In this document: positions 36,601-63,480 of the stretch, piece after piece | Layout of the letters: each line of letters opens with the position of its first letter | Position numbering within the stretch: the stretch's first letter is position 1 | The notes under the pieces: generated by a model | Seen by the model: the letters and a program-made list of their open reading frames with translations, nothing else | What the model was told of the DNA's origin: nothing | Databases searched by the model: none | Translations under genes and position numbers: made by a program | Assembly: GCA_030141605.1 (NCBI GenBank) | Contig: JAQGDQ010000907.1 | Location: forward strand, 1 to 64,000 | Direction: 5' to 3' | DNA: 64,000 nucleotides | Source of the DNA: Tubiluchus corallicola | Lineage: Eukaryota > Animalia > Priapulida

Positions 36601-36637
36601 CTCGCTATAGAAAACAGATGGAGTAACGGCACAAAAT

Positions 36638-41836: not shown

Positions 41837-41900
41837 TTTTTTAGCTTCGGGCTATTGAATTATGAGAGAAAGGGCCAAAAATTAAGTTTACAGGTAAATA

Positions 41901-43721: not shown

Positions 43722-44152
43722 GGTGTGAGAAGAGCTCTGCAAGCTTAATATTTTTGTTGTATATATCTGTTATTAAGAATTGACAACTAAAGCTAATAAT
43801 ATGGAAGAAGTAAAAATGGGTAATGGTAATATTTTAGGTATTGAAAGAAAATATTATGAATACTTTTTTGGAAGTCGAAAGGACTATTATATTCCCCGGC
43901 TTGTTGATTTTGAGAATGGGAAAAAGTATTCATTTAATGTTAGTGCTTTTTTCCTTGGAGTGTTTTGGTTCATTAACAGACGTCTATACAAACATGCACT
44001 TTTAATTTCCTGCTTTCTTATAATTGAAACATTTATTGAGGACTGGATAATTGAAAAATACGGTATCTCAGATAATTTTCAGATTTTAATGTCCCTGTTC
44101 TTGATGGTTGGTTGCATAATTTTATTTGGAATAACTGCTAATTACTTTTTCT

Positions 44153-45509
44153 CAATAGTTCGTTAAACATTTACATAAATATCTGACAATCAATAAAATA
44201 AATGTTGAAAAAATTAGGATAATCCCCCTGATAATCAGTATCTTAAAGTTGTTTTTGACCGACAATTTTAGACATGATTATCAAGGAAATATCAAGATAT
44301 AAAGATCAGGTAAAAATGATTTTAAACCAAATGGAAGGAATAAATAAGTGGCAATTCGATTTTATGCTAGACATCTTCGGACTATTTCTTAGTATCAAAG
44401 GAAAGATGAACTTTTTTCAATTTGGTAGATATGGAAATCACTGTGAGCAACGTTATAGATATCAATTTGAAAAAGGGTTTGATTTTATGACTTTTAACAA
44501 AGAGTCGGTAATCCATTACGCAAGCAACCATCAAGCCATAGCCTTTGATCCAAGCTATATAAGCAAGTCAGGAAAGCATACATCTGGGGCTGGTTACTTT
44601 TGGTCAGGATGTGCCGGCAAAACAAAATGGGGCTTAGAGATTGCAGGAATAGCAGCCGTTGATATTGATAATCATACAGCTTTTCATTTAGAAGCTATTC
44701 AAACCCCTAATAATCTTGAAGCAGAAAGTCTGGTTGATCATTACGCAAATGTTTTGATTCAACGCAAGGACAATCTGTTATGTGTATCAAAATACGTTTT
44801 GGCAGATGCCTATTTTTCAAAGAATAAGTTTGTAACCAAGCTTTGCGAAAATGGATTTGAAGTGATTAGTCGCCTGAGAGATGATGCTAACTTACAATAC
44901 AAATTTTATGGTCAGCAAAAAGCTGGTAGAGGAAGACCTAGAAAATATGAAGGAAAGATTGACTTTGATAATTTAAAATCAAAATATTTTGAATGCTTTG
45001 AGCAAAACGAAAAATGCAAAATATACGGAGCAACAGTTTATGCAAAATCATTAAAACGAGATGTTAATCTTGTTGTTGTTTTTACAAAAGGAACATCCCG
45101 AAAGTGGTCTCACAAGTTATACTTCTCTACTGATTTGCAAATGAAAGCCGAGACGATTCTTGAATATTATCAAGCCAGATTCCAGATTGAGTTCATTTAC
45201 AGAGATGCAAAACAATATACCGGATTGAAAGACTGTCAGGCAAGAAGTGAAAATAAATTACATTTTCATTTTAATGCGTCTCTTACTGCAGTCAATTTGG
45301 CTAAGATTAACCACTGGTTAGCTATACCAAAAATCAATAGAAATGCTTTTTCTATGGCCGATATAAAAACAATGTATCACAATGAATTACTGCTAAATAG
45401 ATTTTTTAGCGTGTTCGCGGTGAGACCAAACTTAACCAAAAACAAATCCAAAATCAGAGAATTAATAACTTACGGCACTATCGCTGCATGATTATTTAAC
45501 GAACTATTG
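44153..45509 (+). mobile_element. Intact insertion sequence, 1357 bp (IS4/IS701-like DDE)
   Basis: Perfect 15-bp inverted repeats CAATAGTTCGTTAAA (44153-44167 and 45495-45509); 6-bp target duplication TTTTCT (44147-44152 and 45510-45515). Confidence 0.93.
44274..45491 (+). CDS. DDE transposase
   Basis: AFDPSYISKSGKHT, LADAYFS, ISRLRDDANL, GRGRPRKY and YQARFQIEFIYRDAKQ (Y-R-E-K type signature). Confidence 0.93.
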   Translation: MIIKEISRYKDQVKMILNQMEGINKWQFDFMLDIFGLFLSIKGKMNFFQFGRYGNHCEQRYRYQFEKGFDFMTFNKESVIHYASNHQAIAFDPSYISKSGKHTSGAGYFWSGCAGKTKWGLEIAGIAAVDIDNHTAFHLEAIQTPNNLEAESLVDHYANVLIQRKDNLLCVSKYVLADAYFSKNKFVTKLCENGFEVISRLRDDANLQYKFYGQQKAGRGRPRKYEGKIDFDNLKSKYFECFEQNEKCKIYGATVYAKSLKRDVNLVVVFTKGTSRKWSHKLYFSTDLQMKAETILEYYQARFQIEFIYRDAKQYTGLKDCQARSENKLHFHFNASLTAVNLAKINHWLAIPKINRNAFSMADIKTMYHNELLLNRFFSVFAVRPNLTKNKSKIRELITYGTIAA

Positions 45510-45782
45510 TTTTCTTAAAATACTCTTATAAAAAAGTTTTTGATATAATAGGATCAACAAATGATGAAGTAATTAAAATAGAAAAGCTCCGGAAGGCTGG
45601 GAGCAACAATTGGATTTTGGCAATAATTACTTTAATGATTTTACTTTTATTGATTTTTGCAAGTGGATCGGTATAGTATAAAAAGAAAAGCGGGCTACAG
45701 TAGCGTATATAAATAACTGCTGTATCATAGGGTGGAGCACTACTTCAGTAGTGTTTGAAAGACACTTTGTGAAACAGTGTCG

Positions 45783-46730
45783 TCAATATAGGACAAAGTT
45801 GTATCTTATAGTTCCTTTTTGAAAGGCCGGAGCATTCTCGTCAGTATTGAACCGTACAGATTCAGCCGCTTTTTTTGCCGCATTTAACAGGTTTGCATCC
45901 AGTGTTGTTGATCCTCTTACTCCAGGGTTAGCTTTTGTAACCTTTCCATATTTGTCAACAGTAATCTCCACGACTACTACTCCTCCTTCGTTTCCTGCAA
46001 ATTCGGGCTTTGGTAGTTGTGTCGCCTTTCTTCCTTCAAGACTATAGGATACTCCATCTCCTGCCCCTCCTGTACCATAACGGTTTGCCCCCTGTGTTCC
46101 GCTGGGGCTGCCTTGATTACCAGGTTCATGTCCTACACCGTGTCCACTGCCTGTCTTTCCGTCATCTGTTGCTTGTTCACTACTAAAAGCATTTTTGATG
46201 CGAGAGTTTATGTCATCTATTTTTTTCTGTTCTTCCGCCTTTTTTCTCCTTTCTTCCTCCTCTCTTTTTTGCCTTTCTTCCTCTTCTCTTTTTCGCTTTT
46301 CTTCTTCTTCTCTTTGCTCCCTTTCAAGTTCAGCTGCACGTTCTTTTCGCTCTTTTTCAAGTTGCGCTTGCCGAGCTGCCTCTATTTTTTCTTCATCCTC
46401 CTTTTTTTTGCCTGTATCAATAGCAACGCTCTCTTCAAAGTCCTGTGTGATAAGCTCTTTTTTTTCTTCATTGGTTGATGTTGCCGGAGGTTGTTGGGTA
46501 GGAGTGGTGGGTGTGGGTGTGGGCTCCTCTCTTACGCTGTGTGATCTTTGCTTTGTCACAGTACTCCTATTTGAGCCTACCGGGGAGTTGCCAAATTCAA
46601 CAAGTATGCCCTCCTCCTCAGGCAGAGGGAGTGGGGTAACAAATCCCAGAGCCATAAGGATTATAGCTATAACAGTATGATAAAGTACTGCTGCTATTAT
46701 GCCTCTACTATTCTTTTCAGAATTTATCAT
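45783..46730 (-). CDS. TonB/TolA-like energy transducer
   Basis: N-terminal anchor with His, Pro/Thr-rich then Glu/Arg/Lys coiled coil, and a TonB C-terminal domain (GVVVVEITVD..GKV). Confidence 0.85.
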   Translation of the reverse strand: MINSEKNSRGIIAAVLYHTVIAIILMALGFVTPLPLPEEEGILVEFGNSPVGSNRSTVTKQRSHSVREEPTPTPTTPTQQPPATSTNEEKKELITQDFEESVAIDTGKKKEDEEKIEAARQAQLEKERKERAAELEREQREEEEKRKREEEERQKREEEERRKKAEEQKKIDDINSRIKNAFSSEQATDDGKTGSGHGVGHEPGNQGSPSGTQGANRYGTGGAGDGVSYSLEGRKATQLPKPEFAGNEGGVVVVEITVDKYGKVTKANPGVRGSTTLDANLLNAAKKAAESVRFNTDENAPAFQKGTIRYNFVLY

Positions 46731-46755
46731 CTGGATCTGGTTAAAATTTGACCCG

Positions 46756-47166
46756 TCACTTTTGCAATGGGCTGGTCGCCAATATCATTTTGTATTTATT
46801 GCGTTTGGCTATATTCATAATCTTCACCACCTCTTCAATGGGAACAGACTTTTCAGCATGCAGGGAAATAAAAACATCTGAGTTATCTTTAAGTGTCCCG
46901 TGTAAATATGGCTCTATTTCATTGAAGCTGACATTAAGCAGCTTTCCCTGTTCGTTGATATAGTACTTCAGGTCTTTGGTTATAGATATAGTGGTTATAG
47001 GTTTTGCATTGACCTGGTTATTGCTTTGAGGTAACAGTAACTTTAATGCGTTAGGGCTTATAAGCGTTGATGTTACCATAAAAAATATGAGCAGAAGAAA
47101 AACAATATCAGTCATTGACGACATGCTAAACCCTGAGTTGACCTTGTTTCTTTTTCGTAAAGCCAT
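46756..47166 (-). CDS. exbD: Biopolymer transporter ExbD
   Basis: MSSMTDIVFLLLIFFM. Confidence 0.93.
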   Translation of the reverse strand: MALRKRNKVNSGFSMSSMTDIVFLLLIFFMVTSTLISPNALKLLLPQSNNQVNAKPITTISITKDLKYYINEQGKLLNVSFNEIEPYLHGTLKDNSDVFISLHAEKSVPIEEVVKIMNIAKRNKYKMILATSPLQK

Positions 47167-47179
47167 TTTTAATTAAATT

Positions 47180-47884
47180 CTATTTTGCTGGTTCATGCAA
47201 CAGATCCATAAATTCAGATGTTGCTGCTTCCATTTTAAATACTACAGTTTCTACTTTTGCTACCAATATATTATAGGCAAAGTATGCAACAATTCCGACA
47301 GTCAGGCCTGCAACGGTTGTGACCATGGCCTGGTAGATACCACTGGATAGTAGGGAGACATCAACATTACTTCCGGCATTTGACATATCGTAAAAAGCCT
47401 GTACCATCCCTATCACTGTCCCCAAAAAACCGATCATTGGAGCTCCACCAGAGACACTGGCAAGTGTTGGCAACCCTTTCTCCAGTTTTGAGATTTCAAG
47501 GTTTCCCACATTCTCTATGGCTGCATTAACATCTCTCAATGGCCTGCCTATCCTGGAAATCCCCTTTTCAAGCATTCTTGCTGCGGGAGTATTATTTGAA
47601 CGACATAGCGATATTGCCGCATCAATATTTCCGGTATGAATATTATCTTTTATCCTGTCAATGAAATAGGAGTCAATTTTTGAGGCCTTTTTAACAGCGT
47701 AGTACCTATTCACAAAGATATAAACCGCTATAAACGATAAGATCACAATGGGTGCCATTATCCACCCTCCTTTTAAAAACAGCTCCCAGAACTTGATCCC
47801 TATAGCTCCTTCAGATGCCTGTGCCAAGTTTTCGGCAACATCTGTAACGACTCTGTTGCCCTGTATCAGTAAGTATTTAAACAT
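47180..47884 (-). CDS. exbB: MotA/TolQ/ExbB proton channel protein
   Basis: GGWIM, APMIGFLGTVIGMV and AMVTTVAGL. Confidence 0.92.
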   Translation of the reverse strand: MFKYLLIQGNRVVTDVAENLAQASEGAIGIKFWELFLKGGWIMAPIVILSFIAVYIFVNRYYAVKKASKIDSYFIDRIKDNIHTGNIDAAISLCRSNNTPAARMLEKGISRIGRPLRDVNAAIENVGNLEISKLEKGLPTLASVSGGAPMIGFLGTVIGMVQAFYDMSNAGSNVDVSLLSSGIYQAMVTTVAGLTVGIVAYFAYNILVAKVETVVFKMEAATSEFMDLLHEPAK

Positions 47885-47919
47885 AAAGTTAAATCTATTA
47901 GTTTTTTATAAATTAATGC

Positions 47920-48059
47920 GAGAGCTTTGTGAAGCTTACCTTTTTACTAATATTAATTTGCCAAAAGCCTCTCCAAAATTTTTATTATATATTAATAACC
48001 TGCGGTTTTCATCAATCTTTTTTTGCCCGAGTCAAAGCCTTTTGTCCTGCAGAGGCCTC
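47920..48059. repeat. Degenerate intergenic MITE-like repeat copy
   Basis: GAGAGCTTTGTGAAG...TTTTTACTAATATT...CCTCTCCAA...CTGCGGTTTTCATC...CTGCAGAGGCCTC. Confidence 0.7.
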
Positions 48060-48180
48060 AAAGTGTTAAAACCTGCAGCTTTTTTTAGGCAAAAAACTTT
48101 TGATGCAAAAATAAGCACTAAAGTAAAATATTAAAACTTTAATGTTTATTATATAATCTAAGCGTAAAATATTTTGTGCC

Positions 48181-51100
48181 TTATTCTGCATCTATTGTCA
48201 TGTTGGGTTCGCTCTCTTCTTCCACAACCGAATTTTTCTGTTTATTTTTTTTTGCCTTTTTTCGCTCCCTCTCTTTTTTACGTCTGTCACTTCTCTCCGC
48301 ACGGCGTTTCTTTAAGTCCTTTAAGTTATCAAACTCTTCTCTAAAAGAGACACCAACACCCTGTGTATATGGTGAAGTGTTGTATCCCAGCCCTTCGTTG
48401 GAGTGGTTGTACGCTTTCAGTTGCACTCTGCCGCTTTTGTCAAGTTTGAGAAAAAACTCCACCTCTCCGACCACCTCGTTGGCTGTGCTTTGCTGGTATG
48501 CCTTATTGCCAATATTCCCACTTACTACCAGTCTGTTATCAAATACCTGGGTTCTCAATGCAAATTCAACTTCGCGGCCACTAACATCGTCGCCTGGACG
48601 ATAGTTAACTCCAACATCAATGTCATCACTTATCTGAGACAGAAGGCTGGAAACCTGGCTGGATATCATCTCTGATGTTGTATATCCCAATATATTAGCA
48701 TTTGTTGATTCAAAGTCAGGGTTTCCGCGCAGATATTCAGGGGTGTAAAACTTACCTGTTACAATAAGGGCGAGCATTTGTTGGTTAACATCATCTTGTG
48801 TACTTATGTATTGGCGCACCTTGTCTTTTGTCCTTTCATCGGCAGAAGGGAAGTCAATGCCAAACTTCATAATCGGATTAAACAGGTTGTGCGATAGATT
48901 TACTTTACATTCTACCTGTACTTTATCGGTATTGCTATTTCCGCTATCCTGAGACTCCAACAGTAATTCATAAAGAGAAGCTCGTGTGTTGTAAATAGCA
49001 TTCATATCAATAGTTGCGTCATTAGGATCTCCATTCCACGAAATTGCTCCCCCCCCTTCCAGTTCAAACTTTTTACGAAGTATATCTCTAAGTGATAAAG
49101 TGTAGTGGCCTGAAGTAACTTCATAGTCGCCATATACAAGAAGTTTGTTATCCTCGCCGTACTCTAATCTCATACTGCCATTTCCGCGTCCTCTGAGTAC
49201 CCCTCCTGTGTTTGCACCAAATACAATGCGCATTTGCGCATCGGAAGTAACGTCCATATTTAATATCATATCAAATCCACCTTTAACCTCCTCTTCAATT
49301 ACGGGGTAATTATCGACGACAGGGTCTTCTGCGGATGTGAATTTTAAAAAGTCGTATTTAGCTGCATGCCCTGACTCTCCAGGATATAGTGTTATTCCGG
49401 TCCCGCTTTCAGATCTTAGTGCCATCTCTAGCTTTATATCTTTTTTCTCCCCACTAATTTTCATGTTTCCAGAGGCATTCACCTTTCCATAAAAAAGTTT
49501 GTTATTTTTTGCGCTGGTGTTTAGTGCAAGAATACGGTCTGTCTCGATATTCATGTTGTACACCATATCAGAAAATAAATGATGCTTGATGCTGCCCTTA
49601 AACAGGCTAATGTTATCGTCTTCATCAGTAATAAGTATATCTTTAAACAGGATTGAATCGTTCGAAAAAAATATTGTGTCAGAAAACAGAAATGAAGTAT
49701 TGGTATAAGCTATGCCAATATTCCCTTTATCTACATAAACCCCCCCGTCTATATTGAGAGAGTCTTTTGTGCCTGAGACGATCAATTTACCATAACCTTT
49801 TCCTCCTACGCCACTGCTGAATTTTTTCAGTACAGCGTAGAGGGTTTCCATTGGGAAAGCTGAAAAGTCGGCTTCGTAATATACTTGTCCGTCTTGAGGA
49901 AAAACTTTCCCCTCGATACTCAGCTTCTCTCTATTGTCGTCTAAGAGTTTTATAGATGATATCAAAGCATCATTGTCTTTATCCCAGATGTTGTTCAGAA
50001 CAATATCTCCTATTTCCTCTTCTCTAAAGCGAGCTTTTTCTATAGTAAGCTCACTTGTTACTATCAATTCACCATATATACCCAAGACATTAAGCTCTCC
50101 GTTTAATATGCCATCAAACTCGGTATCTTTACTTGATAGTGTGTTTAGCCTTGATATCTGTATATTGTTAAATAATACGCTCAGTTTGTCATTGTTTGAT
50201 CTGGACACCATGCCTTTGATCTGAAGGCTCTCTTTTTCATGGCTGAGTGCAAAGCTATCTACCGCAATTGAAGTGGGGTAGACATGTATGGAGCCTTTGT
50301 TTATCTGCCAAAGTGAGTCGGCTATCCATATATTTGTAGGTTCAATCAAGATATCTGCTGAATGGGTTCCTGTTAAAGAGTTTTTTGACAGCGCTGCTAC
50401 ACCTTCTATTTTTCCTCTGTAGGTTACTTCATCACTGTTACCCCATGCTACCGACACCGCCAAACTATCGTTAGCAGACACCTTATTTAGTGCCAGATTT
50501 TCGATTTCAGTAGAGTTGTTAATTAACACTTTATCAGCTATTGAACGGAAGTGCCATTTGTTTTCGGTGTTCCATGAGCGAAAGTTTACTCCTGTAAACA
50601 AGTTATTTCTATATCTAATGTTAGGAGTTGAGCCATCAAAAACGATATGTTTGTTCTTCATGTCAAACTTACCATTAAGTCTTACAGGTTCGATTACTAT
50701 AAAGTCGGAAAATAGTAACGAGGTTAGCTTTCTGGATTGTTTGACATTAATATCGAAGGAGAATACACTTTTAGCCTTGCTTGCTGCTTCTCCGGGACCT
50801 GGAAGGTTGGCTGAAGGCAAAAAGCTATGAATATGGTTCATTGTTTCTGATGCAAGGTTTTTTAGCACATATTCTCCCTCCAAGTCAGCATCAATGAGTT
50901 CAGAGCGTATTTTTATTTTTCTGTCCTGGCCGGTGTGTGCTATGGAGATGTCAATGCTATCTGTGTCAAAAGTTTTTTCTCCTCTTACAACGTTTACTTT
51001 ATCAAAGCGAATCACCCCGTCTATGTCATCAATATAGTTCCCTGCAATATCCACTTTCAACCCAAATGACATGTTTGAGTTACGGTGCTCTTCGTCAATA

Positions 51101-52734
51101 TCAAGCACAAAGAGGTTTGCGTGTCCTACCTGCACGGCTAAGTCAAGTACAGGCTTTTTATTGTTCATATCTGCTTTCCCCGCAAAGAGCATATTTAGGT
51201 ACTCATTTTCGATACCAACTCCCCATTCATAGATGTTATCCTCCAGATGGCTGTTTAGATGCACAGGCCCCATTTCGTAGCCATTATAGAATACACTGTT
51301 AGCTATGCCATTAATCACAATATTGAAATTGCCGTCATTTAGCCTAATACCCTCCAGGTTTATGTGGGATGTAGCTTCATCAAGTTTTTCAATACCAAGG
51401 AACTTCCCAATATTGAAACAGTCGGTGGAAAGAGAGCCCCTAAAAGTTGCTCTTCCTGCATCATCATATTTTGCTGTTGCATGTGTGGTTATTTGTCCTA
51501 ATGCTCCGCCTGCCACTCCATATGCTTCAAAGTCTGAAGGAAATCCGCTAGCCGACCACTTATATGTTAAAGTAGTTCCGTCATTAAGCGAGTCTGGGAT
51601 TTTAATGTGCTTGCTATCAAAGCTATCAGGAAGCCTTATTGAGCATATATCGCGAAAGTCAAGTGTATTATCTTCGCTACTAAGGTAGAAAAATGATTGT
51701 TCCCAGTCAGGTAGCCCTTTAACCTCTAAATCGGCATTAAGTTGAGTGGCATTGCCCAGCCTGATGCTGAAGTCGTTAATTTTAAAATCGTCTATTGTTC
51801 CGTGTAAATCGCCTGAAAGAGCGATGTCTCCACCCAGTCCCTTTAAGTCCGGTACTAGTAAGGCTATATCGTTAAATGAAATTGTTGACTTGGCTATGTT
51901 AGCGCTCATATTAAAGTCACCCAGTTTCTCAAACAGGGCACTGTCAGATATTTTATCTAAAATTAGTGTGTCTACAGGTGATGTCCGGGGAGACAGACTA
52001 ACTTGGGGAATTACGATTTTTGATGAATCTGTTTGAAGTATAAAGTCCGCCATCTCCATCTCCATTTCTAGTGGGCCTACCGAGCCGTTAAATGAAATCT
52101 CACTGATATGGAGTCCGCTTTTATCAATAAACGAAAAATTTTCTACACGAAATGTTGTTGCCGTGTCACTCTCCCAAACATCTTTTAGAGAGAAGTTAAA
52201 ATCGGTAATAGCTATATCATTGAGGTTTAACCCTTGCTCCGGGGAGGTGTGGTTATCCTCATCGATATAATTGAAAGAGGATTTTTTTAGATGCACGCTA
52301 TTGAATGAGATTTTCCACGGCCTAATCGTATCTACCTCTATTTTGCTAATCGAATCGATTAGAAACTGAATGTTTAGCTTGTTAGAATTGGTTCTCAGAT
52401 TTATTATGGCATCCTGAAGATATATGTCTCTGAAATGAACAAATCGTTTTCTAATTTTTAATGTATTGATACTTGCTTTTACATTTGCCGCAAAAATTAA
52501 AGTGTCAGATGATTGATCTTCAATAAGGATATCTTCGAGTACAATTTTGTCAATCAGGGATATGTTCACTCCACCTACTGTAACATTAGCTCCCAGCGTT
52601 TCTGACAGCCTCCCGGTAAACCATTGAGCAACTTTTGTTTGCACACGGGTACTCCTGAAAGCCACGTATGCACTCATCATCACCAGTATCAGTGCCGAGA
52701 CAATAATTAATAATATTTTGTACCTTTTTTTGAT
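48181..52734 (-). CDS. tamB: Translocation/assembly module TamB (start uncertain)
   Basis: About 1500 aa, beta-rich, with C-terminal GDP..A..D..AIY and YTQGVGVSFREEF. The frame and hydrophobic anchor extend upstream of the GTG at 52683. Divergent from tsaD. Confidence 0.85.
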   Translation of the reverse strand: MKKRYKILLIIVSALILVMMSAYVAFRSTRVQTKVAQWFTGRLSETLGANVTVGGVNISLIDKIVLEDILIEDQSSDTLIFAANVKASINTLKIRKRFVHFRDIYLQDAIINLRTNSNKLNIQFLIDSISKIEVDTIRPWKISFNSVHLKKSSFNYIDEDNHTSPEQGLNLNDIAITDFNFSLKDVWESDTATTFRVENFSFIDKSGLHISEISFNGSVGPLEMEMEMADFILQTDSSKIVIPQVSLSPRTSPVDTLILDKISDSALFEKLGDFNMSANIAKSTISFNDIALLVPDLKGLGGDIALSGDLHGTIDDFKINDFSIRLGNATQLNADLEVKGLPDWEQSFFYLSSEDNTLDFRDICSIRLPDSFDSKHIKIPDSLNDGTTLTYKWSASGFPSDFEAYGVAGGALGQITTHATAKYDDAGRATFRGSLSTDCFNIGKFLGIEKLDEATSHINLEGIRLNDGNFNIVINGIANSVFYNGYEMGPVHLNSHLEDNIYEWGVGIENEYLNMLFAGKADMNNKKPVLDLAVQVGHANLFVLDIDEEHRNSNMSFGLKVDIAGNYIDDIDGVIRFDKVNVVRGEKTFDTDSIDISIAHTGQDRKIKIRSELIDADLEGEYVLKNLASETMNHIHSFLPSANLPGPGEAASKAKSVFSFDINVKQSRKLTSLLFSDFIVIEPVRLNGKFDMKNKHIVFDGSTPNIRYRNNLFTGVNFRSWNTENKWHFRSIADKVLINNSTEIENLALNKVSANDSLAVSVAWGNSDEVTYRGKIEGVAALSKNSLTGTHSADILIEPTNIWIADSLWQINKGSIHVYPTSIAVDSFALSHEKESLQIKGMVSRSNNDKLSVLFNNIQISRLNTLSSKDTEFDGILNGELNVLGIYGELIVTSELTIEKARFREEEIGDIVLNNIWDKDNDALISSIKLLDDNREKLSIEGKVFPQDGQVYYEADFSAFPMETLYAVLKKFSSGVGGKGYGKLIVSGTKDSLNIDGGVYVDKGNIGIAYTNTSFLFSDTIFFSNDSILFKDILITDEDDNISLFKGSIKHHLFSDMVYNMNIETDRILALNTSAKNNKLFYGKVNASGNMKISGEKKDIKLEMALRSESGTGITLYPGESGHAAKYDFLKFTSAEDPVVDNYPVIEEEVKGGFDMILNMDVTSDAQMRIVFGANTGGVLRGRGNGSMRLEYGEDNKLLVYGDYEVTSGHYTLSLRDILRKKFELEGGGAISWNGDPNDATIDMNAIYNTRASLYELLLESQDSGNSNTDKVQVECKVNLSHNLFNPIMKFGIDFPSADERTKDKVRQYISTQDDVNQQMLALIVTGKFYTPEYLRGNPDFESTNANILGYTTSEMISSQVSSLLSQISDDIDVGVNYRPGDDVSGREVEFALRTQVFDNRLVVSGNIGNKAYQQSTANEVVGEVEFFLKLDKSGRVQLKAYNHSNEGLGYNTSPYTQGVGVSFREEFDNLKDLKKRRAERSDRRKKERERKKAKKNKQKNSVVEEESEPNMTIDAE

Positions 52735-52903
52735 ATTTTTCCACCTTAAAAGCAGCGGCCGGTCTGCTTTGTGTTTGCTTAACTCCCGCTAAATTTACTA
52801 TAATTTTTGATGCATATGTTTTTTCAGAGTGTTAGTTTGGTAGTCCTAACAATAAAACTAAAGCAAAAAAAGTGCCATAAAAAAGAAACGGATATTAGCG
52901 TAA

Positions 52904-53196
52904 AGAAATTTTTCACAAAGTGAAGAATTTTTGCACGGATTGAGAAAAAATTAATGAAAAGCTAAAATTTATTGATGTGATTAAGGGTTTTGAAGAGAGT
53001 TTTAACGAAAATATTGAGACCTTTGGATGGTGAAAGGCCTTATCTCAGGTTGAGGAAAAGCTCGATGAAAACCGCAGCTTGCTTGATGAATAAGTAAAAG
53101 CTTTGAGGGGGTGTTTTGATAAAAAAACATCAGTAAATAAGGGCCTTGTAAGTGCTTTATGTTGATGGAAAGGTGAGCTTTGGTAGAAAAGGTTTC
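52904..53196. repeat. Nested pair of MITE-like repeats (inner copy 53016-53158)
   Basis: Inner copy GAGACCTTTGG...TTGTAAGTGCTTT is flanked by ATATT and ATGTT; removing it rejoins an outer copy. Confidence 0.6.
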
Positions 53197-53327
53197 GTAA
53201 AATAATTGCACACATAATACTCTAATTTACTATCTCTTGCCTGTAAGTTGAGATTTTTAATCAACATGTTAGCTGTGACTATTTTTTATATCATTTTGTC
53301 CCATCTGGGAGTTAAAATCATAAGCAG

Positions 53328-54359
53328 ATGAGAAAGAGCAAGGACATAATAATTTTAGGTATTGAGTCATCGTGTGATGACACCTCAGCAGCTCTGATAA
53401 AAGACAATACTATTTTAAGCAATGAGATTGCAGGGCAGGCAGTTCACGAGGCATATGGGGGGGTTGTACCCGAACTTGCATCCCGTGCGCATCAACAAAA
53501 TATAATACCGGTTGTTAATAGCGCTTTAAAAAAGGCAGGTGTTGCGCCTAAAGAGATTGATGCTGTTGCATTTACTCGTGGTCCTGGACTGCTAGGATCG
53601 CTTCTGGTTGGCACCTCATTTGCGAAAGGGTTTGCTTTTGCCTCTAAAATTCCACTTATAGAGGTTAACCACTTACAGGGGCATGTGCTGGCGCATTTTA
53701 TAAGGGAAGGAGGGGAGCCGGGCCGTACACCAGGGTTCCCATTTTTGTGTCTTCTTGTTTCTGGTGGAAACTCACAAATAATAGTAGTGAAGGATCACTT
53801 AGAGATGGAAGTGATAGGCCAGACTATTGATGATGCAGCAGGAGAAGCTTTTGATAAATGTGCCAAGGTAATGGGACTTCCTTACCCCGGAGGGCCTCTT
53901 ATCGATAAGTTTGCTAAAAAGGGGGAGCCGCAGGCGTTTAGATTTTCAAAACCGATGGTTCCCGGGCTGGATTATAGTTTTAGTGGTTTGAAAACATCAT
54001 TCCTGTATTTTATTCGCGATAGGGTTAAGGAGGATCCGCTTTTCATAGAGGAGCAGAGGTGTAATATATGTGCCTCTATACAGCAAGCTATTGTTGAAAC
54101 GCTTATGGGTAAGTTCAAAGAGGCAGTTAATAAGACAGGGATTAAGGAGGTTGCAGTTGCAGGTGGTGTGTCAGCTAACTCAGGCCTGCAGGAAGCGCTG
54201 CGAGTGGAGGCAAAGAAGGAGCGTTGGAACCTGTTTATTCCCAAGCCTGCTTATACAACAGACAACGCAGCAATGATTGCTGTTGTCGGGTATTACAAGT
54301 ATTTAAAAGGTGAGTTTGCAGAACAGAGCATAGAGCCGTTTGCAAGAATGACGCTGTGA
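53328..54359 (+). CDS. tsaD: tRNA N6-adenosine threonylcarbamoyltransferase
   Basis: LGIESSCDDT, GGVVPELASRAH, NHLQGH, DDAAGEAFDK, FSGLKT and TDNAAMI. Confidence 0.97.
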   Translation: MRKSKDIIILGIESSCDDTSAALIKDNTILSNEIAGQAVHEAYGGVVPELASRAHQQNIIPVVNSALKKAGVAPKEIDAVAFTRGPGLLGSLLVGTSFAKGFAFASKIPLIEVNHLQGHVLAHFIREGGEPGRTPGFPFLCLLVSGGNSQIIVVKDHLEMEVIGQTIDDAAGEAFDKCAKVMGLPYPGGPLIDKFAKKGEPQAFRFSKPMVPGLDYSFSGLKTSFLYFIRDRVKEDPLFIEEQRCNICASIQQAIVETLMGKFKEAVNKTGIKEVAVAGGVSANSGLQEALRVEAKKERWNLFIPKPAYTTDNAAMIAVVGYYKYLKGEFAEQSIEPFARMTL

Positions 54360-54470
54360 GGCCTTTGCAAGAAGAGGTAGTTTGGCTTGCGCTGAAAAAC
54401 CAATGGAAATCTTCAGCCTGATTACAAACGAGTGGTTTGAAAGAGGATTTATGGAAATTACGGAAAATCA
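54358..54470. repeat. Truncated MITE-like repeat copy overlapping the tsaD stop codon
   Basis: T-GAGGCCTTTGCAAG...TTTGGCTTGCGCTGAAAA...TTTGAAAGAGGATTT. Confidence 0.6.
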
Positions 54471-54706
54471 ATACCCTAACTATAGTGGTAAATTATTTAT
54501 TTTTTTGCGATTCTGTTCAGATTGCTAGCAGTTCCGGGAATGAAATTGTTTGGTGTCCAGAAATGATATCAAGTAGAAATCCTATTAAGCTAGAGAATTA
54601 CAAATATCTAGCAGTTTCTGGTAGGCACCCATGAGTCCAGTTTTGATTTTATTGATACAGACTTTAACAATACCAATTGAACGTAGCTGCTTATAAAAGC
54701 ACATTT

Positions 54707-54838
54707 ACTAACACGTGCTAAGAAATAATTGCCTATTTGGAAATTTTGCGGGAGTTTGACTCCCGCATTTACTTTTTGATGTCATTTGACCGCTTTGTGC
54801 TCCGCTATCGGCAACTATTCATAGCACTAACCGTTAGT
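54707..54838. other. attC-like imperfect palindrome (132 bp)
   Basis: ACTAAC...GTTAGT outer arms, GTGCTAAGAA/TTCATAGCAC and AATTGCC/GGCAACT inner arms, and an internal hairpin GCGGGAGT-TTG-ACTCCCGC. Confidence 0.6.
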
Positions 54839-55213
54839 GAAAACGCAGGACAAACCTGCAAGTGTTAATATAAATAAATCTTAAATTATGAAGCACTTAC
54901 GGTTAGTTGCAATTATGATTATAATGATAAATTTGATAATAGCAGAGTAGTGAAAGCTGCTTAGATCGAACTCACGTTAGAAGATAAGTTTTGTAAAGGT
55001 GTTGCCGAGCGAACTTACATAGACATAAAATATTATAGAGGGGTCATTATAAGTGATTTAAGGAAAGAAGGCATACAAATAAAAAACCAAGCCTTCGGCT
55101 TTTTGATAAACACATATTTGCATTTGCAGAAAAAATGATGATTATTGACACCTGCCTATCCAAATTTTGATTATCTTTCCAACTGTTTTACAATACAAAA
55201 TCTATGTAATGCA

Positions 55214-57028
55214 ATGAAATTAGAAACAATTGACTTTATTATTTTGGCTATTTTCTTTTCTGTCGTTTTATTGATAGGGTATGTAGCATCTAAAAAAGCG
55301 GGCAAGAACACTTCCGAATTTTTTCTTGGAGGGCGGGGGATGCCCTGGTGGCTGTTGGGAGTATCCATGGTAGCATGTACATTTTCAGCCGATACGCCAA
55401 ACCTTGTTACAGGAATGGTAAGAGAGTCCGGAGTTGGTAAAAACTGGGCGTGGTGGGCTTTTCTGATCACCGGGATGGTAACGGTTTTTATATATGCACG
55501 TCTGTGGCGCCGCTCAAATGTAATGACGGACCTGGAGTTTTATGAAATACGTTATGGAGGTAAGTCTGCTTCTTTCCTGAGGGGCTTCAGGGCGATATAT
55601 CTGGGGATATTTTACAACACCCTCATTATGGGTACGGTTACTTTGGCCGCAATCAAAATAGGCGACGTAATGTTTGGTATCAAGCCGTGGATTACTGTTG
55701 TTTCCGCCTCTTCAATTGTGATTATATATGCAGGGCTGGGAGGTTTACGCGGTGTGGTGTGGGCTGATTTTTTCCAATACGGCATTGCAATGTTTGGAGC
55801 GGTGCTTGCTGCAGTTGTTGCAATACGCCAACCTGAAGTTAAGGCTATAGGTGGGTTTTCGGGAGTGTTGGAACAACTGGGTGATAAAGCAAACTTTTTG
55901 CCGAATATGAGTGACCCGTCAATATTTATACCACTGCTTATTATTCCTATTGCCGTTCAATGGTGGGCGGTGTGGTATCCTGGTGCAGAACCGGGTGGAG
56001 GCGGTTATATTGCACAGCGGATGCTTTCTGCGAAGAATGAAAAAAATGCTATTGGGGCAACACTTTTTTTCAATTTTGCACATTATGCCCTGCGTCCATG
56101 GCCATGGATTGTCGTGGCAATGGCATCAATGGTTATATATCCCGAACTTGAAGATATCAGAGCTGAGTTTCCCAATATCTCAGAGACATACCTAAAGGAC
56201 GATATTGCATATCCTGTAATGTTATCAAAGCTTGGGAAGGGATGGCTTGGCCTTGTTGTAGCATCAATTATTGCAGCATACATGTCAACTATAGGCACTC
56301 ATCTTAACTGGGGGTCTTCCTATGTTGTGCATGACTTTTATAGCCGTTTTGTAAAGAAGGATGCTTCTCAAAAAGAGTTGGTAGCAGTTGGACGTAGCAC
56401 AACAGTTGTGCTGATGTTTATCGCAGCGCTTTTTGCTTTAACGTTTCTCAACAATGCTACGCAGGCATTCAATGTACTACTGCTATCAGGGGCAGGCTCC
56501 GGAGCGATATATATTCTCCGCTGGTTCTGGTGGAGAATAAATGCGTGGACAGAGATAGTGGCTATGGTATTTGCAACTGTAAATGCTGTAATTTTAATAT
56601 TTTTTGTAGAGGATAGTATGGTAGAGACTAGGTATCTTGATGGCTTTACAGTGAAGTTGCTTTTGGCGGTAGGAGCTACAACAGTAGTATGGTTGGTAAC
56701 GGCCTTTGTTACCAGGCCTGAAAGTAAGGAGACTTTACGCCGTTTCTACAAGTTGACGCACCCGGGTGGTCCCGGATGGAAAAAAGTTGTGCAGGAGGCA
56801 GAAGCGGATGGGGTGGCAATAAATGAGAAAGAGAAAGGAATGGCGTGGGAGATGCCAAAACAGATAATGCTGGTCTTCATCGGGTGTGTTACTATATACA
56901 GTTCTCTTTTTTCGATCGGGAATTTTGTTTATGGTAAAAATTTGCTTGGTGCGGCGCTTGCAGCTGTGGCAGCATGTTCAACATTTCTGCTTTTTAAGTT
57001 GTTTGCAAAACTAAGAACAGATAAGTAG
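55214..57028 (+). CDS. Sodium:solute symporter (SSS family)
   Basis: FFLGGRGMPWWLLGVSMVA, GGLRGVVWADFFQ and GGGYIAQRMLSAKNE. Confidence 0.9.
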   Translation: MKLETIDFIILAIFFSVVLLIGYVASKKAGKNTSEFFLGGRGMPWWLLGVSMVACTFSADTPNLVTGMVRESGVGKNWAWWAFLITGMVTVFIYARLWRRSNVMTDLEFYEIRYGGKSASFLRGFRAIYLGIFYNTLIMGTVTLAAIKIGDVMFGIKPWITVVSASSIVIIYAGLGGLRGVVWADFFQYGIAMFGAVLAAVVAIRQPEVKAIGGFSGVLEQLGDKANFLPNMSDPSIFIPLLIIPIAVQWWAVWYPGAEPGGGGYIAQRMLSAKNEKNAIGATLFFNFAHYALRPWPWIVVAMASMVIYPELEDIRAEFPNISETYLKDDIAYPVMLSKLGKGWLGLVVASIIAAYMSTIGTHLNWGSSYVVHDFYSRFVKKDASQKELVAVGRSTTVVLMFIAALFALTFLNNATQAFNVLLLSGAGSGAIYILRWFWWRINAWTEIVAMVFATVNAVILIFFVEDSMVETRYLDGFTVKLLLAVGATTVVWLVTAFVTRPESKETLRRFYKLTHPGGPGWKKVVQEAEADGVAINEKEKGMAWEMPKQIMLVFIGCVTIYSSLFSIGNFVYGKNLLGAALAAVAACSTFLLFKLFAKLRTDK

Positions 57029-57089
57029 TTTTTTAAACACGTTATAGCGCATTTGTAGCAGGGGGTTTGACCGCTTGTAAAATACGTTT

Positions 57090-58382
57090 ATGAAGACATC
57101 TATATTTATAGCTACTTCTGTGTTGGCCATCTTATGTTCAATTAATGATGCTGAAGCGCAGAAAACCAAAAGGCTTGAAAGTAGCTCAAGAAGGGTACCC
57201 AAGTGGGTTTATGGAATTGAGAAGGATTATATCATAGCTACAGGTTCGGGATCAAGCATTGATGTTGCAAAGCAGAATGCTCTCATCATGGTGAAACACA
57301 GGATAATAACCTCTGTGGCTGAAAATATTCAGTCCTGGGGTGAGTATGTTCTGGAGGAGACAACCAGTGATAATATTTCGAGCTTTTTTGAGAACTATGA
57401 AATGAATATAAAGGCTGAATCGGCCGATATTGAGTATGTTAAGGGGATTTCACTTAGCAAGGTGGAGGAGTTTTATTGGGAAAAAGTGAGAACGGATAGA
57501 GATATTAGGTTCAACTATTCTATAAAGTATCCATTTTCTCAAATAAGGCTTCAGAGCTTGGTCGCAGAGTTTGAGAGAGCTGATAGAGAGCTTACCGATC
57601 AGTTAAATTCTATTGTTGATAGTATTGATGAAGTAACTAGTGTAGAGGAGATTCAGAAGAATATTAAAGTGCTTCGTGGTTTGTCAAAGTCATTTTCTGG
57701 GCAGAGAAAAATTAAAGCTGAGTCGGGAGTTACTCAATTAAGTTCACTACTTCGGTCTGTTTCAATTGAGCCTGTTGAAAGCAGTCTCGGGAAGATTGTA
57801 TTTATTTTAAAGATTGGTGACAAGGTGGTTACATGTGCAAAAAATCCAAATGTAGCGTCACAGTGTGCCGATATTACCTCTGTGCTTAATAAAGGGGATA
57901 GCTGGGAGATAAGATATACGTATGATAATTGTGGAGAGGGTGTGCCGGATGTTGTGGATGTGAAATATAAGTTTGGAGGTGTAAAAACCGGATATGAGTT
58001 TTTATTTGATGCTACTACCAGCAAAGTTGATTTTTTCTTAAACGGGAGTATATATATCAAGTCTCTCTCCAGGAGTGGCAGAGATATTTCAAAGTCAGAG
58101 TGTTTAGTCACCCTAACTTCTAAGCATAACAGTACATTCATTGTCAACAAGGTTGTGCTGGAATGGAGAGGGTTACCCCCTTTGGAGTTAAGTGATATTA
58201 ACAGGGAGTTTAGTGGGAAGGGAGATCATGAGCTCAGGATTGCTATAAACCAAAAGCTAAATGATAGTTACAGCTCAACAAAACAATCGATGGTTAAAGG
58301 GTATATTACTGCAACTTCCAAATTGACAGGAGAGACCACTACATTTAGATTGTATAACCAAAGCATCAATACAGACTGGTAG
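57090..58382 (+). CDS. Exported hypothetical protein with an LPP20-like N-terminal region
   Basis: Signal peptide, then P.WV...YIIATGSG.....AKQNAL, which resembles LPP20-type domains. Confidence 0.6.
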   Translation: MKTSIFIATSVLAILCSINDAEAQKTKRLESSSRRVPKWVYGIEKDYIIATGSGSSIDVAKQNALIMVKHRIITSVAENIQSWGEYVLEETTSDNISSFFENYEMNIKAESADIEYVKGISLSKVEEFYWEKVRTDRDIRFNYSIKYPFSQIRLQSLVAEFERADRELTDQLNSIVDSIDEVTSVEEIQKNIKVLRGLSKSFSGQRKIKAESGVTQLSSLLRSVSIEPVESSLGKIVFILKIGDKVVTCAKNPNVASQCADITSVLNKGDSWEIRYTYDNCGEGVPDVVDVKYKFGGVKTGYEFLFDATTSKVDFFLNGSIYIKSLSRSGRDISKSECLVTLTSKHNSTFIVNKVVLEWRGLPPLELSDINREFSGKGDHELRIAINQKLNDSYSSTKQSMVKGYITATSKLTGETTTFRLYNQSINTDW

Positions 58383-58608
58383 TGCTGTTTAATACCAGTT
58401 CCTTTTTTAGCCTGATGAAAACTTAATTTAGAAGTTAGTGCAAGCGATGATTTTAGAGATAGTTTTAAAGAAGTATAGGTGGGAGATTTGCAGATTGTAT
58501 CTTATAAAAGGTTCAAATGTAGTTGCATGTATCGCAAGGTGGACCTATCAGGAGTGTTGCTGGTGTATTTGATAGCTGTAGTTTCAGAGTATAATGCTTA
58601 GATATATT

Positions 58609-59922
58609 ATGAAAACCAAAATTATTCTTTTGTCTACAGCTTTGATTATGAGTTCTGTAGTATCGTTGATGGGCAGTAGCAAGAGTGGTGAGGGGAAAGA
58701 TGTAAAATACCGAAGAAGCTCCCTTCATATGATATTGATTGAGTCAGATAATTTTCCAAGAAAAGAGACAGTTATAAAAGCATACAACAATGCCCCTTTC
58801 CCGGATAAGTATGATGATCACAGGTTAGAAGAGAGCTACTTTGACCCCAATAGGTGCCAGCATGATAATAAAGAGAGCAGAGGCGGTAGCCGAGGTGTAA
58901 GAAGCAGCTATACAGCAACAGGTGCCAGCAGTATGGAAGACCCCAATGAGGACGATCCCAATATGCACTTAATAATAAGTAAGTACCTTAGGGAAAATAG
59001 AATTGCTAATAAGCTGGTTGCAAAGTGGTTTAGCAGGGGGGAGGATGGTTCTTTTAATATGAAGTTGATAGAAGATAGGGGATTTTACAATGCAACTGAG
59101 ATGGAGGCAAGTATTGCCAAAAAATCTGTGCGGGGAATGGCCGCATTAGCTGATGCCGGAATAGAGTTAATAAACAATACATTTGTTGTTGTCTCAAAAT
59201 TGAACTTTGTCGATAATGAAGCAGTGGCCTCTATTTTAAGAGAAGCGGCATATTACGCAGCCGGGAAAATTACTTCTGAGATTGTGCAAGCTATAGCTAT
59301 AGCTGCTGCCGATGTAGCGTATAAGAAGGCTAAAGAGGGATATTCTGTATGGACAACCTCATACCTTTATCAGCTTCAATGGAACGACTCTATCGAGGCC
59401 GTTTTTTATAACGATTTGTGGATGGATAGTTTAAATATAGATGTTAAAAAGAGAGAGGCATTTGATGAAACAGATCTGTTTCAACTTAAGTTTTTAGGAA
59501 GGGAGAAAGCCACAAGCCTTGTTTTGTTTTCATTAAAGGAGACAAGAACAGAGGAGCAGATAATAGAATTGGCCACAGTAAGAAACATTGACGCGGTGTA
59601 CGCTAAACTTCAAAAGAAATATGATGTGTTTAAGCCTAAGATACCTCTTTATACCGGGTATCCGATTACGGCTAAAATAGGCATGAAGGAGGGGTTAAAG
59701 GGGGGTGAGAAGTTTGAGGTGCTTGAGCAGGTAGTTGATCCTAAAACAGGGCTGACTAAGTATGTAAGGAAGGGAAAAATAACAGTTGATAAGAAGTGTA
59801 TATGGGATAACAGGTACAATGCAGGGAAGGAGACTGAAGCGGAAGATTCTGAAGTTAAATTTACTGCATTTAAAGGCAGAAAACGATTTTATCCGGGAAT
59901 GTTGATTAGGCAACTTAAATAG
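58609..59922 (+). CDS. Exported hypothetical protein
   Basis: Long ORF with a signal peptide; C-terminal AKIGMKEGLKGGEKFEVLE is reminiscent of FlgT/CsgG-associated C-terminal beta domains. Confidence 0.7.
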   Translation: MKTKIILLSTALIMSSVVSLMGSSKSGEGKDVKYRRSSLHMILIESDNFPRKETVIKAYNNAPFPDKYDDHRLEESYFDPNRCQHDNKESRGGSRGVRSSYTATGASSMEDPNEDDPNMHLIISKYLRENRIANKLVAKWFSRGEDGSFNMKLIEDRGFYNATEMEASIAKKSVRGMAALADAGIELINNTFVVVSKLNFVDNEAVASILREAAYYAAGKITSEIVQAIAIAAADVAYKKAKEGYSVWTTSYLYQLQWNDSIEAVFYNDLWMDSLNIDVKKREAFDETDLFQLKFLGREKATSLVLFSLKETRTEEQIIELATVRNIDAVYAKLQKKYDVFKPKIPLYTGYPITAKIGMKEGLKGGEKFEVLEQVVDPKTGLTKYVRKGKITVDKKCIWDNRYNAGKETEAEDSEVKFTAFKGRKRFYPGMLIRQLK

Positions 59923-59979
59923 GGTTCTTTGCAAAGCAAACATTTTGATTCAGAGAAAGGGGAGTTTTGTGAAGGTTCC
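59922..59979. repeat. Short internally deleted MITE-like copy starting in the stop codon
   Basis: TA-GGGTTCTTTGCAAAG...GAGTTTTGTGAAGGTTCC. Confidence 0.55.
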
Positions 59980-60036
59980 GAAATTATTAACTTTACTTCT
60001 GCTTTAAGTTTTAGGAGAGGGTAAAAAAAGTAAAAA

Positions 60037-60564
60037 ATGAAAACAGTAGGGAAAAAATTTACATTAGTGCTCTTAATTGTGTTATGTTTTTCTTTTTTTG
60101 TAAATGCACAATCCAGGAAGAAGGCAAACAGAGATACAGAGCAGTGGCGCTATGAGGTTGAGTGTGTGGGTGTAGGCGTTAAAGGTACGTATTTGATCAA
60201 GGTGTGGTCGTACTCCAAAAAGCAAAAGGTAGCCATTGAGCAGGCAAAGAAAAATGCTGTTCATGGAGTAATTTTTAAAGGCTATGCGGGAGGTGAGCAA
60301 GGGTGTACTCCACAGAAGGCTTTGGTAGTGGATGCTTATACTGAACAGAAAAACAAGGAGTTTTTCACCAATTTTTTTGCTGATGGTGGCAGGTATATGA
60401 GGTATGTTAGTTTTTCGGCAGATGGAAGTATTGCTGCAGGAGATAGATTAAAAATCAGTAGGAAGGAGTATAAGATAGGTGTTGTTGTTTCAGTTAGAAA
60501 GGATGATTTGAGAAAAGAGCTTGAAAGAGAAGGAGTTATAAAAGGGTTGTCAGACGGGTTTTAG
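60037..60564 (+). CDS. Exported hypothetical protein
   Basis: Signal peptide, AIEQAKKNAVHGVIFKG and LRKELE..GVI. Confidence 0.75.
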   Translation: MKTVGKKFTLVLLIVLCFSFFVNAQSRKKANRDTEQWRYEVECVGVGVKGTYLIKVWSYSKKQKVAIEQAKKNAVHGVIFKGYAGGEQGCTPQKALVVDAYTEQKNKEFFTNFFADGGRYMRYVSFSADGSIAAGDRLKISRKEYKIGVVVSVRKDDLRKELEREGVIKGLSDGF

Positions 60565-60636
60565 GAGTACCGGGTTTTAGTTATAAAATCGCTAATAAGC
60601 TCTGTTCTATCCATTGGAAAATAAAATTATAAACAG

Positions 60637-61383
60637 ATGAAAAAAGCAATTCTATTTTTGACTGTTGCAATACTGAGTGTTAACCTGCTTTTTGGACAAG
60701 CGAAGAAGCCAACTATTATGGTTGTTCCAAGTGATGTCTGGTGTAATGAGAACGGGTATATGATGGAGTTTGATAAAATGGGGACAAAAGTAAGAATTCC
60801 AAATTATAAAGCGGCATACCAGGGGAGTTCAGACCTATTACTTGTTATTAGTACAATAAACGGGATGATGGCAGAAAGAGGATTCCCTCTCAAAAATATG
60901 GAGTCGGCTATGAAAACATTAGGAGCAAATAGGGCCGAAACATCTATGACCTCCTCCAAAGAGACAGGTGTGGGGGAGAGCGAGACTCCGGTTGATAAAT
61001 TGAAAAAAACTGCTAAAGCGGATATAATAATGCAGTTGACATGGACTGTTAATACTACCGGGCCTAAGAAGTCGGTTACATTTAACTTACAGGGGCTGGA
61101 TGCATATACAGATAAGCAAATTGCTACTGCAGTAGGAACGGGAGCTCCCTCTTTTTCGGCAGAGCTGCCGGTGTTGTTGGAGGAAGCGGTTTTATCTCAT
61201 ATGGATAATTTTTGTTACTCTCTTCAGTCCTTTTTTGACGATCTGTTTGTAAATGGGCGAGAGGTGGTTATTCGCATTAAGAAGTGGGATGACTGGGAGG
61301 AAGACCTTGAGTCTGAGTTTGGAGATGATGGCGATGAATTGGGTATAATCATTGAGGACTGGATCGCAGATAATACGCTGTGA
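60637..61383 (+). CDS. DUF6175-like exported protein, apparently truncated at the junction
   Basis: Signal peptide then QAKKPTIMVVPSD.WC and LQGLDAYTDKQIA. It stops abruptly after IEDWIADNTL, exactly where the sequence character changes. Confidence 0.7.
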   Translation: MKKAILFLTVAILSVNLLFGQAKKPTIMVVPSDVWCNENGYMMEFDKMGTKVRIPNYKAAYQGSSDLLLVISTINGMMAERGFPLKNMESAMKTLGANRAETSMTSSKETGVGESETPVDKLKKTAKADIIMQLTWTVNTTGPKKSVTFNLQGLDAYTDKQIATAVGTGAPSFSAELPVLLEEAVLSHMDNFCYSLQSFFDDLFVNGREVVIRIKKWDDWEEDLESEFGDDGDELGIIIEDWIADNTL

Positions 61384-61759
61384 AATCTCCATTGTTAATA
61401 GTGAGAAAATAGTGAGGTCCATCTGGTGCTCTGAATTTCCACCAGTTGCTGATCGAAAACTTCTTTTTCAATTTTATTGTCGTCACCATAGCAACCAAAT
61501 TCGTGTAAAAAATAAATGAAAAGAATTCCGTTTGATTCTTGTAAGAGCTTGCTGTGACTGGAGAAAATTACAAATCAAAGCATATAGTGACTTATGAGAC
61601 ACCCTGTATTTTTATTATCCACACATATGTTCAAGCCTTAACTATAACAAAAAGGGAATAGCTAAACATTTAAACAGGTACTGAATGCACTCTAACATAG
61701 CAAAGCAAATAAATTCATAATTTACCATCGCAGATTTAGAACTTCAGTAATGTCATGTC

Positions 61760-62170
61760 CAGAGGCGCATCAAGACTTTAAGATGCCCAAGGCTAATAGT
61801 TCTGTACAGCCCATCTCTATTTTTTAATAATTACTTATGTAATGAGCGGATAAAACAATTACTTGTGGTGTATTAGAAACATTGTTAACCTGGTTTCTAT
61901 GTGGTCATTACTAATTACATGTATTTGCATAGGGCTTATATTTAAACAGACTGCACAGCTGTTTGTGTAATAGCTTGCGCCTGTTCGTTATGTGGCATAT
62001 AATATAAAAGCTGAGCTTAGTAACTGCCTGTGGTGTGTTATAAAATGTGCCCTTTACATGAACATGAAAGTACACACATTTTCCGAGGTATAAGAATTTT
62101 TCTAAAATGTGACGCCCTCAGACTTTGGCGCCCTAGGCTATAGTCTAGTTTATTGGTTAATACGCCCCTG
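61760..62170. mobile_element. Non-autonomous hAT-type DNA transposon (MITE), 411 bp
   Basis: Ends CAGAGGCGCATCAA and TTAATACGCCCCTG are inverted repeats (11 of 14 match); perfect 8-bp target duplication GTCATGTC at 61752-61759 and 62171-62178. Confidence 0.85.
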
Positions 62171-62311: not shown

Positions 62312-62486
62312 ACATTCGCTAATTTTATCCACTTGTACACGTTATTGTCTCTCAGCATTCCAGTAAACATTGTTTCATCATCTTGACAGGCATCAGTAGC
62401 AGAGGAAAAGTCCCTGGCTTCACTTACTCTCACACAGCTGTACGTTCTTGGTACGTAGTTATAACCAGACGGACAAAAGTAACTTT
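62312..62486 (-). CDS. Exon C of a spliced C-type lectin domain gene (start of a second CTLD)
   Basis: ttcag acceptor and gtaagt donor; 175 nt, phase 1 to phase 2; (E)SYFCPSGYNYVPRTYSCVRVSEARDFSSATDACQDD...KWIKLAN. Confidence 0.85.
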
Positions 62487-62726: not shown

Positions 62727-62873
62727 CTGGCAGGTAAGCGCGTTCGGGCAATAACCGCACTTCACAAATGTACTGAAGCTGCTCCTGACACGGGAAGTAA
62801 CGGACGACATTAGTTCCAGAACTCGGGACGTAAGCTAGACAACCGTCGTCAACGTCACCTTCAACTACAAGTC
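62727..62873 (-). CDS. Exon B of a spliced C-type lectin domain gene (end of the first CTLD)
   Basis: ttttttccattcag acceptor and gtgagt donor; 147 nt, phase 1 to phase 1; (G)LVVEGDVDDGCLAYVPSSGTNVVRYFPCQEQLQYICEVRLLPERAYLP. Confidence 0.88.
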
Positions 62874-63400: not shown

Positions 63401-63480
63401 CATAGTTGGACAAGTCTACGGACGTACCTTCATATCCTCCATACACTGTGCCATCATCCAGCCTCAGGCTAAGCCATACA
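63401..63480 (-). CDS. Exon A of a spliced C-type lectin domain gene (middle of the first CTLD)
   Basis: ttttaaacag acceptor and gtgagt donor; 80 nt, phase 2 to phase 1; VWLSLRLDDGTVYGGYEGTSVDLSNY (WIGL-like motif). Confidence 0.82.

Follow-up and report, generated by a model that had tools for sequence, protein, structure and literature searches.

According to the available parts of the reports, the chimeras that fall in the TRIM and FIX classes of FCS-GX (PMC10898089) and the false transfer in a tardigrade (10.1101/033464) consist of an intact prokaryotic span that is fused to host DNA, and the coverage of this span is unlike that of the host and shifts between libraries. In the tardigrade case, a different relative coverage between libraries was used as a criterion against false transfer (10.1101/033464). 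Insertions of Wolbachia DNA in Drosophila ananassae, where long and near-intact bacterial DNA lies beside animal DNA, were shown by FISH and copy number, and the available text of that report adds that a genuine insertion may be under-represented in some tissues (PMC4299567). For the chromosome of Rickettsia africae in Amblyomma variegatum, which also has a bacterium-animal junction within the assembly, the part of the report at hand describes junction-spanning PacBio and ONT reads, uneven and duplicated coverage, an absence of plasmid reads, persistence under antibiotic, and FISH (10.64898/2026.09.16.751987).

Here we analysed a stretch of DNA of 64,000 nt, referred to below as the window, in which a long bacterial segment continues directly as eukaryotic DNA. 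It resembles the chimera and contamination cases both in its intact prokaryotic span fused to host DNA and in a coverage that is unlike that of the host and shifts between libraries, and it differs from them, as described in the parts available, in that most of the window is bacterial, no N gap is present and, in two of three libraries, the bacterial depth exceeds that of one-copy host DNA (PMC10898089; 10.1101/033464). The length and near-intact state of the bacterial DNA are also like those of the D. ananassae insertions; unlike for the vertically transmitted, intracellular Wolbachia in the text available, the donor allele here continues past the break, judging by contigs (PMC4299567). With the tick case, as far as the available text goes, the window shares a junction within the assembly, whereas none of the 32 pieces listed here spans the junction and the data suggest a living bacterial population (10.64898/2026.09.16.751987). 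Our analysis indicates that the join is very probably an assembly chimera of an animal and an undescribed bacterium that were sampled together, and not a gene transfer.

The bacterial segment and its truncated gene

The original prediction, made from the letters of the window, had described 61 kb of intact Bacteroidota genes in which the housekeeping genes show no decay, and this description was confirmed for everything to the left of the break. The features of this segment that bear on the join are the following.

1..61376, no strand assigned: Bacteroidales (Prolixibacteraceae-like) chromosome segment, undecayed, as judged from coding sequences, NCBIfam matches, a tRNA-Ser and the identity of PurB and TyrS
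2784-2873: tRNA-Ser
58594..60564, plus strand: two conserved genes that precede DUF6175 in its cluster, with homologues in 76 and 79 of the 80 loci compared
60637..61376, plus strand: DUF6175 gene, truncated about 70 codons short of its normal end (positions 1-225 of the 293 of profile PF19672)

The 46 coding sequences cover 86% of the segment, and an NCBIfam match was obtained for 35 of the 42 left-side proteins scanned. The proteins S1, TyrS, SmpB, PheT, PurB, TsaD, SdhABC, RmlACD and YsxC all scored above the NCBIfam cut-offs over nearly the whole profile. Open reading frames of at least 100 aa cover 87% of the left side versus 0% of the right side, and the lowest value among 118 equal-sized windows on the left was 46%. 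Judged by the names of the best matches for PurB and TyrS, the closest named relatives would be Prolixibacteraceae, order Bacteroidales, as the taxon-named top matches of both proteins were all Prolixibacter, Mariniphaga or Prolixibacteraceae. The two proteins were 77-80% identical to those of named Prolixibacteraceae, their best identity to any sequence was only 79-80% (8,000 candidates scored per protein), and an exact look-up of ten bacterial proteins in a protein collection found none of the ten.

It had also been claimed that the bacterial part ends in the middle of a DUF6175-like gene. Indeed, the open reading frame 60637-61383 belongs to DUF6175 (PF19672), with an E value of 2e-96 and 322.9 bits against a Pfam gathering cut-off of 23, and the domain is incomplete, with about 70 aa missing in comparison to its homologues. 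These homologues were collected by scanning genome contigs, and the best 80 of 130 relatives were used. In 37 of these 80 loci the alignment reached residue 248, and all 37 continue for another 68-73 residues; the remaining 43, in which the first alignment ended earlier, also run on. A gene of 238-390 aa follows DUF6175 in every one of the best 80 loci. No Pfam family was found for the two genes at 58594..60564, and the two genes ahead of this pair are absent from all 80 loci. Because the homologues extend 68-73 aa further, the next gene is present in 80 of 80 loci and the upstream pair in 76 and 79 of them, a conserved operon is severed mid-gene at the break.

The break and the eukaryotic side

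Six sequencing runs were compared with the window; none of them was an RNA data set, which says nothing about expression. Three of them (X1, X2 and X3) are from a single sample (S1), which may be the source of the window itself, and each contained at least half of the window words. Run X4 belongs to another sample and study and had a word fraction of 0.11, and two further runs with the same species label (X5 and X6) contained next to no window words, host repeats included, so that they say nothing here. Contigs, and not reads, of X1 to X4 were aligned to positions 58800-64000; contigs drop rare variants, and for all depth figures given below contig depth is not the same as copy number.

The bacterial sequence ends at position 61376 and the eukaryotic sequence begins at 61377. 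The contigs from X1, X2 and X3 are identical or nearly identical to the window as far as the last bacterial base and then diverge. The switch that had been placed at about 61380 is thus present in the window, with its true position 4 nt further to the left, and the join lacks an N gap or visible repeat, as had been stated: there are 0 N letters in the 64,000 nt, and a repeat search gave no notable repeat at this point. A transposase or integrase end was not found at the break either. The final codons of the open reading frame 60637-61383, with the TGA at 61381-61383, derive from the right-hand DNA. This in-frame TGA was considered as a meaningful stop and rejected, because a stop within three codons is expected 19% of the time in the right-hand DNA. 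The composition barely marks the join, with a GC content of 39.8% on the left versus 36.4% on the right; the two sides were not distinguished by an order-3 Markov score, nor was the junction visible in dinucleotide ratios. To the right of the break, we identified the following features.

61377..61606, no strand assigned: low-copy repeat of the host, probably what is left of the right part of a truncated Tc1/mariner-like element, with a terminal-repeat-like motif at its end that is followed by TA
61760..62170, no strand assigned: hAT-type MITE of 411 bp, high-copy in the host, with terminal repeats that match at 11 of 14 positions
62312..62486, minus strand: exon, phase 1 to 2, with AG/GT ends, likely encoding the N-terminal portion of a C-type lectin domain (MRC1-like and Atlas matches)
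62727..62873, minus strand: exon, phase 1 to 1, with AG/GT ends, likely encoding the C-terminal portion of the lectin domain before it (the PDB search matched the ends of LY75 lectin domains weakly)
63401..63480, minus strand: exon, phase 2 to 1, with AG/GT ends and fitting phase, likely the mid-part of a lectin domain; no informative family match

The three GT-AG exons on the minus strand have mutually compatible phases, and the right side is repeat-rich eukaryotic DNA, likely from an animal. With phmmer, exon 62312..62486 gave four matches, of which one was a Branchiostoma MRC1-like Lectin_C protein (E 1e-3) and the other three were short stretches in CBM_14 chitin-binding mucins. The Atlas assigned the same exon to Lectin_C with a score of 0.91, based on 22 of 30 matches and only 115 of 256 shared features. 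A Pfam search of the single exons found the lectin family (PF00059) in 0 of 3, a word-seeded search of the exons was blank, and a PDB search of the exons was blank in one case and reached only E 0.47 in the other. The GT-AG introns and the hAT MITE that had been proposed for this side are therefore upheld by the in-phase exons and the features of the element, and the lectin label holds to a moderate degree, with one of four phmmer matches and the Atlas in its favour and blank or weak results from Pfam, word search and PDB. On this moderate support the gene is likely a C-type lectin. Because the gene is read on the minus strand in the direction of the junction, and its last recognised exon ends in phase 2, the break would fall within an intron of this likely lectin gene.

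The element at 61760-62170 has the characters of a hAT-type MITE, namely an 8-bp target duplication, short terminal inverted repeats, no coding capacity and a high copy number. Such a duplication and repeat match occurred in two of 100 shuffles, and the summed depth of the element in X1 was 1.3-1.5e5. The repeat next to the break (61377..61606, 230 nt), which we presume to be probably Tc1/mariner-like and truncated by the break, has no partner for its terminal motif in the window; its depth in X1 was about 1,000-1,100 versus 180-440 for near-unique host pieces. Very high-copy host repeats, with a summed depth of up to 8.7e5 in X1, were also observed at 63672-64000, and the group to which the animal belongs could be recognised from them. 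Some variation was observed between the host version in the window and the contigs. Over 458 nt of 63156-63617 the window and the X1 contig differ by 10 letters and 4 gap positions, and the exact window version of 63393-63500 was found in X2 only at a depth of 3.2, with deeper variants alongside. The window version of 63156-63617 may represent a paralogue, a haplotype of low frequency or a tail with thin support.

Contigs that pass the break

In X1, a contig of 59,754 nt was identical to the window over 58800-61376 (record positions 13,291-15,867) and then continued for 43,887 nt more. The contigs of X2 and X3 ceased to match at 61376 as well, and extended 218 and 228 nt beyond it. In none of the three runs does the sequence beyond 61376 match the window, and it is known from its lengths and depths; the overhangs would be the remainder of the bacterial gene and operon. 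The original prediction had named a sequence that continues past the break as a sign against insertion, and such a continuation, judged by its length and depth, was found in all three runs of S1. A piece bridging 61376|61377 was not present among the 32 pieces listed, with 16,632 others outside these 32. The earliest host piece among those listed starts at 61561, and the loose ends listed, which were taken up by repeats, include none at 61376|61377. At a branch with good support, a de Bruijn contig would normally come to an end. Homopolymer-like gaps were seen in the contigs of X2 and X3 and were absent from the bacterial contig of X1, which suggests that the three runs are a mix of long-read and short-read libraries.

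The choice between a chimera and a recent insertion had been left open. Our data favour the chimera, because the contigs of all three S1 runs pass the break into sequence that is not in the window, and the insertion has lost ground through these contigs and the missing depth step in X2 and X3. The undecayed state of the left side was also counted for the chimera, as were the depth data, the absence of a bridging piece among the 32 listed and the start of the X1 contig at the base predicted for an insertion sequence carried by only some of the bacterial cells. The break, the missing end of the gene and the contigs that pass the break are direct observations. As to how the join may have arisen, the bacterium would have been abundant in the sample beside the animal, with a replicon of its own, and in one or a few library molecules a random bacterial fragment would have been ligated end to end with a random host fragment. 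The assembler would then have followed this chimeric molecule, plausibly a single chimeric long read. A gene and a repeat that are both cut at arbitrary points, with neither a gap nor a mobile-element end, would be expected from such a ligation. It counts against the chimera that the evidence comes from contigs of a single sample, possibly the source of the window, and that contig building might remove a branch that leads into a repeat of high depth. As a chimera, the contig should be split at 61376|61377. Otherwise, at least 61 kb of bacterial genes would be counted as animal genes or as a transfer, and the lectin gene model would stay truncated.

Sequencing depth and alternative explanations

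We compared the depths of the host and bacterial contigs between the libraries, with host pairs chosen from rows that hold one to three contigs. For the host, the X1/X2 ratio had a median of 15.7 (13 pairs, 12.2-21.6) and the X1/X3 ratio a median of 35.9 (7 pairs, 24.5-75.4); six repeat bins gave X1/X2 ratios of 10.6-27.9. The bacterial depth ratios were 1.8-2.3 for X1/X2 and 3.9-5.6 for X1/X3. The GC contents of the two sides are too close to explain this gap. Because the host depth shifts about 16-fold between libraries and the bacterial depth only about 2-fold, at similar GC, we infer that the bacterium behaves as a separate replicon. A fixed depth ratio of the bacterial block to the host across libraries was absent (about 2 versus about 16 for X1/X2, and 4-6 versus about 36 for X1/X3), although free donor cells could mask it. 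In X2 and X3 the bacterial depth was about 2-3 times the estimated one-copy depth of the host.

It is very unlikely that 61 kb or more of a Prolixibacteraceae-like chromosome was integrated very recently into an intron of the lectin gene, in one haplotype or a subset of cells and with the living donor still abundant in the same animal. If true, this would represent a large transfer from Bacteroidota to an animal, observed ahead of any decay, with a donor outside the Wolbachia and Rickettsia cases compared. Less likely again is a real but rare junction, which would stem from somatic integration in a few host cells or from host DNA acquired by a minority of the bacteria. Contigs lose rare variants and would hide such a join, and the low depth at which X2 holds the exact host version of 63393-63500, next to deeper variants, is consistent with it. 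However, it makes no prediction beyond those of a single chimeric read, and neither a transposase nor an integrase end lies at the break. Rare real junctions are also far less common than library chimeras.

We consider it more doubtful still that at least 61 kb of bacterial DNA was recently inserted in the germline, into the lectin-gene intron of one haplotype, while the sample still contained the living donor. The join is gapless and would lie in an intron, a position that could tolerate an insertion, and such cases exist in flies and ticks according to the available parts of the reports (PMC4299567; 10.64898/2026.09.16.751987). The mean bacterial depth in X1 (61.8) also numerically permits one copy, as it fits a one-copy insertion together with free bacteria at a depth of 3-15, but two copies are ruled out in X1 by a negative implied free depth. 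In X2, the contig straddling the break had a depth of 34 versus 27.3 for left-only contigs, whereas an integrated copy predicts 23-26; in X3 these values were 16 and, on average, 12.5, with 6.5-10.5 predicted. No drop in depth was detected where contigs pass 61376 in X2 and X3, the two runs in which it could be estimated, so that the depth step that an insertion would predict at this point is absent from both, the straddling contigs being as deep as the left-only ones or deeper. The contigs are, moreover, unbroken at 61376 in three of three runs, the host and bacterial depths vary independently between the libraries, and the left side is without decay. Finally, it is scarcely conceivable that the right side is a non-coding or foreign island of the bacterial chromosome instead of eukaryotic DNA. 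In favour of such an island, GC and 4-mer scores differ little between the sides and the Pfam lectin family is in none of the single exons; against it, the GT-AG exons are in phase, the repeats reach a summed depth of 8.7e5 in X1 versus 61.8 for the bacterium, none of the 80 bacterial loci matches the right side, and X4 contains the right side but hardly anything of the left.

The bacterium sampled with the animal

With the join read as an assembly chimera, as we prefer, the left side represents an abundant bacterium that had no close match in the sequence searches run. It had been suggested that an animal-associated Bacteroidota genome lies inside the assembly. That a member of the Bacteroidota was sampled with the animal is supported by the contigs and by the PurB and TyrS matches, and there is a hint of a stable symbiosis. 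In X4, from the other sample and study, an exact bacterial piece of 161 nt (59466-59626, depth 9.2) was found together with host exon pieces, and no other bacterial piece was listed, which gives a weak hint that the animal and the bacterium co-occur again. As a by-product, a Bacteroidales genome whose relatives reach at most about 80% identity in two marker proteins, and which is deeper than the one-copy host in two libraries, could be binned from the same data. The segment also contains a mobile element.

44153..45509, plus strand: IS701/IS4-like insertion sequence, probably in only part of the bacterial population, with transposase matches under the curated cut-offs, terminal repeats and a 6-bp target duplication

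This element disrupts a small open reading frame at 43801. The start of the X1 contig, derived by offset and assuming no indels over 13 kb, lies at 45510, the first base after the insertion sequence. In de Bruijn contigs, a merely multi-copy element would place the start about 30 nt earlier. Because the X1 contig starts at the base from which the sequence would be common to empty and filled alleles, the data suggest that both alleles coexist, that is, a mixed living bacterial population.

Some further observations were made on the bacterial genes. The ribosomal protein S1 frame (3501-5855) has about 190 additional low-complexity residues ahead of the start of its profile match, and a lipoprotein-like frame at 22637-24364 shows leucine-rich-repeat similarity, far under the internalin cut-offs. 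The region 58594-61376 and the loci of its relatives (L001-L080) form a conserved cluster around DUF6175, probably of secreted proteins, that is present in many Bacteroidota.
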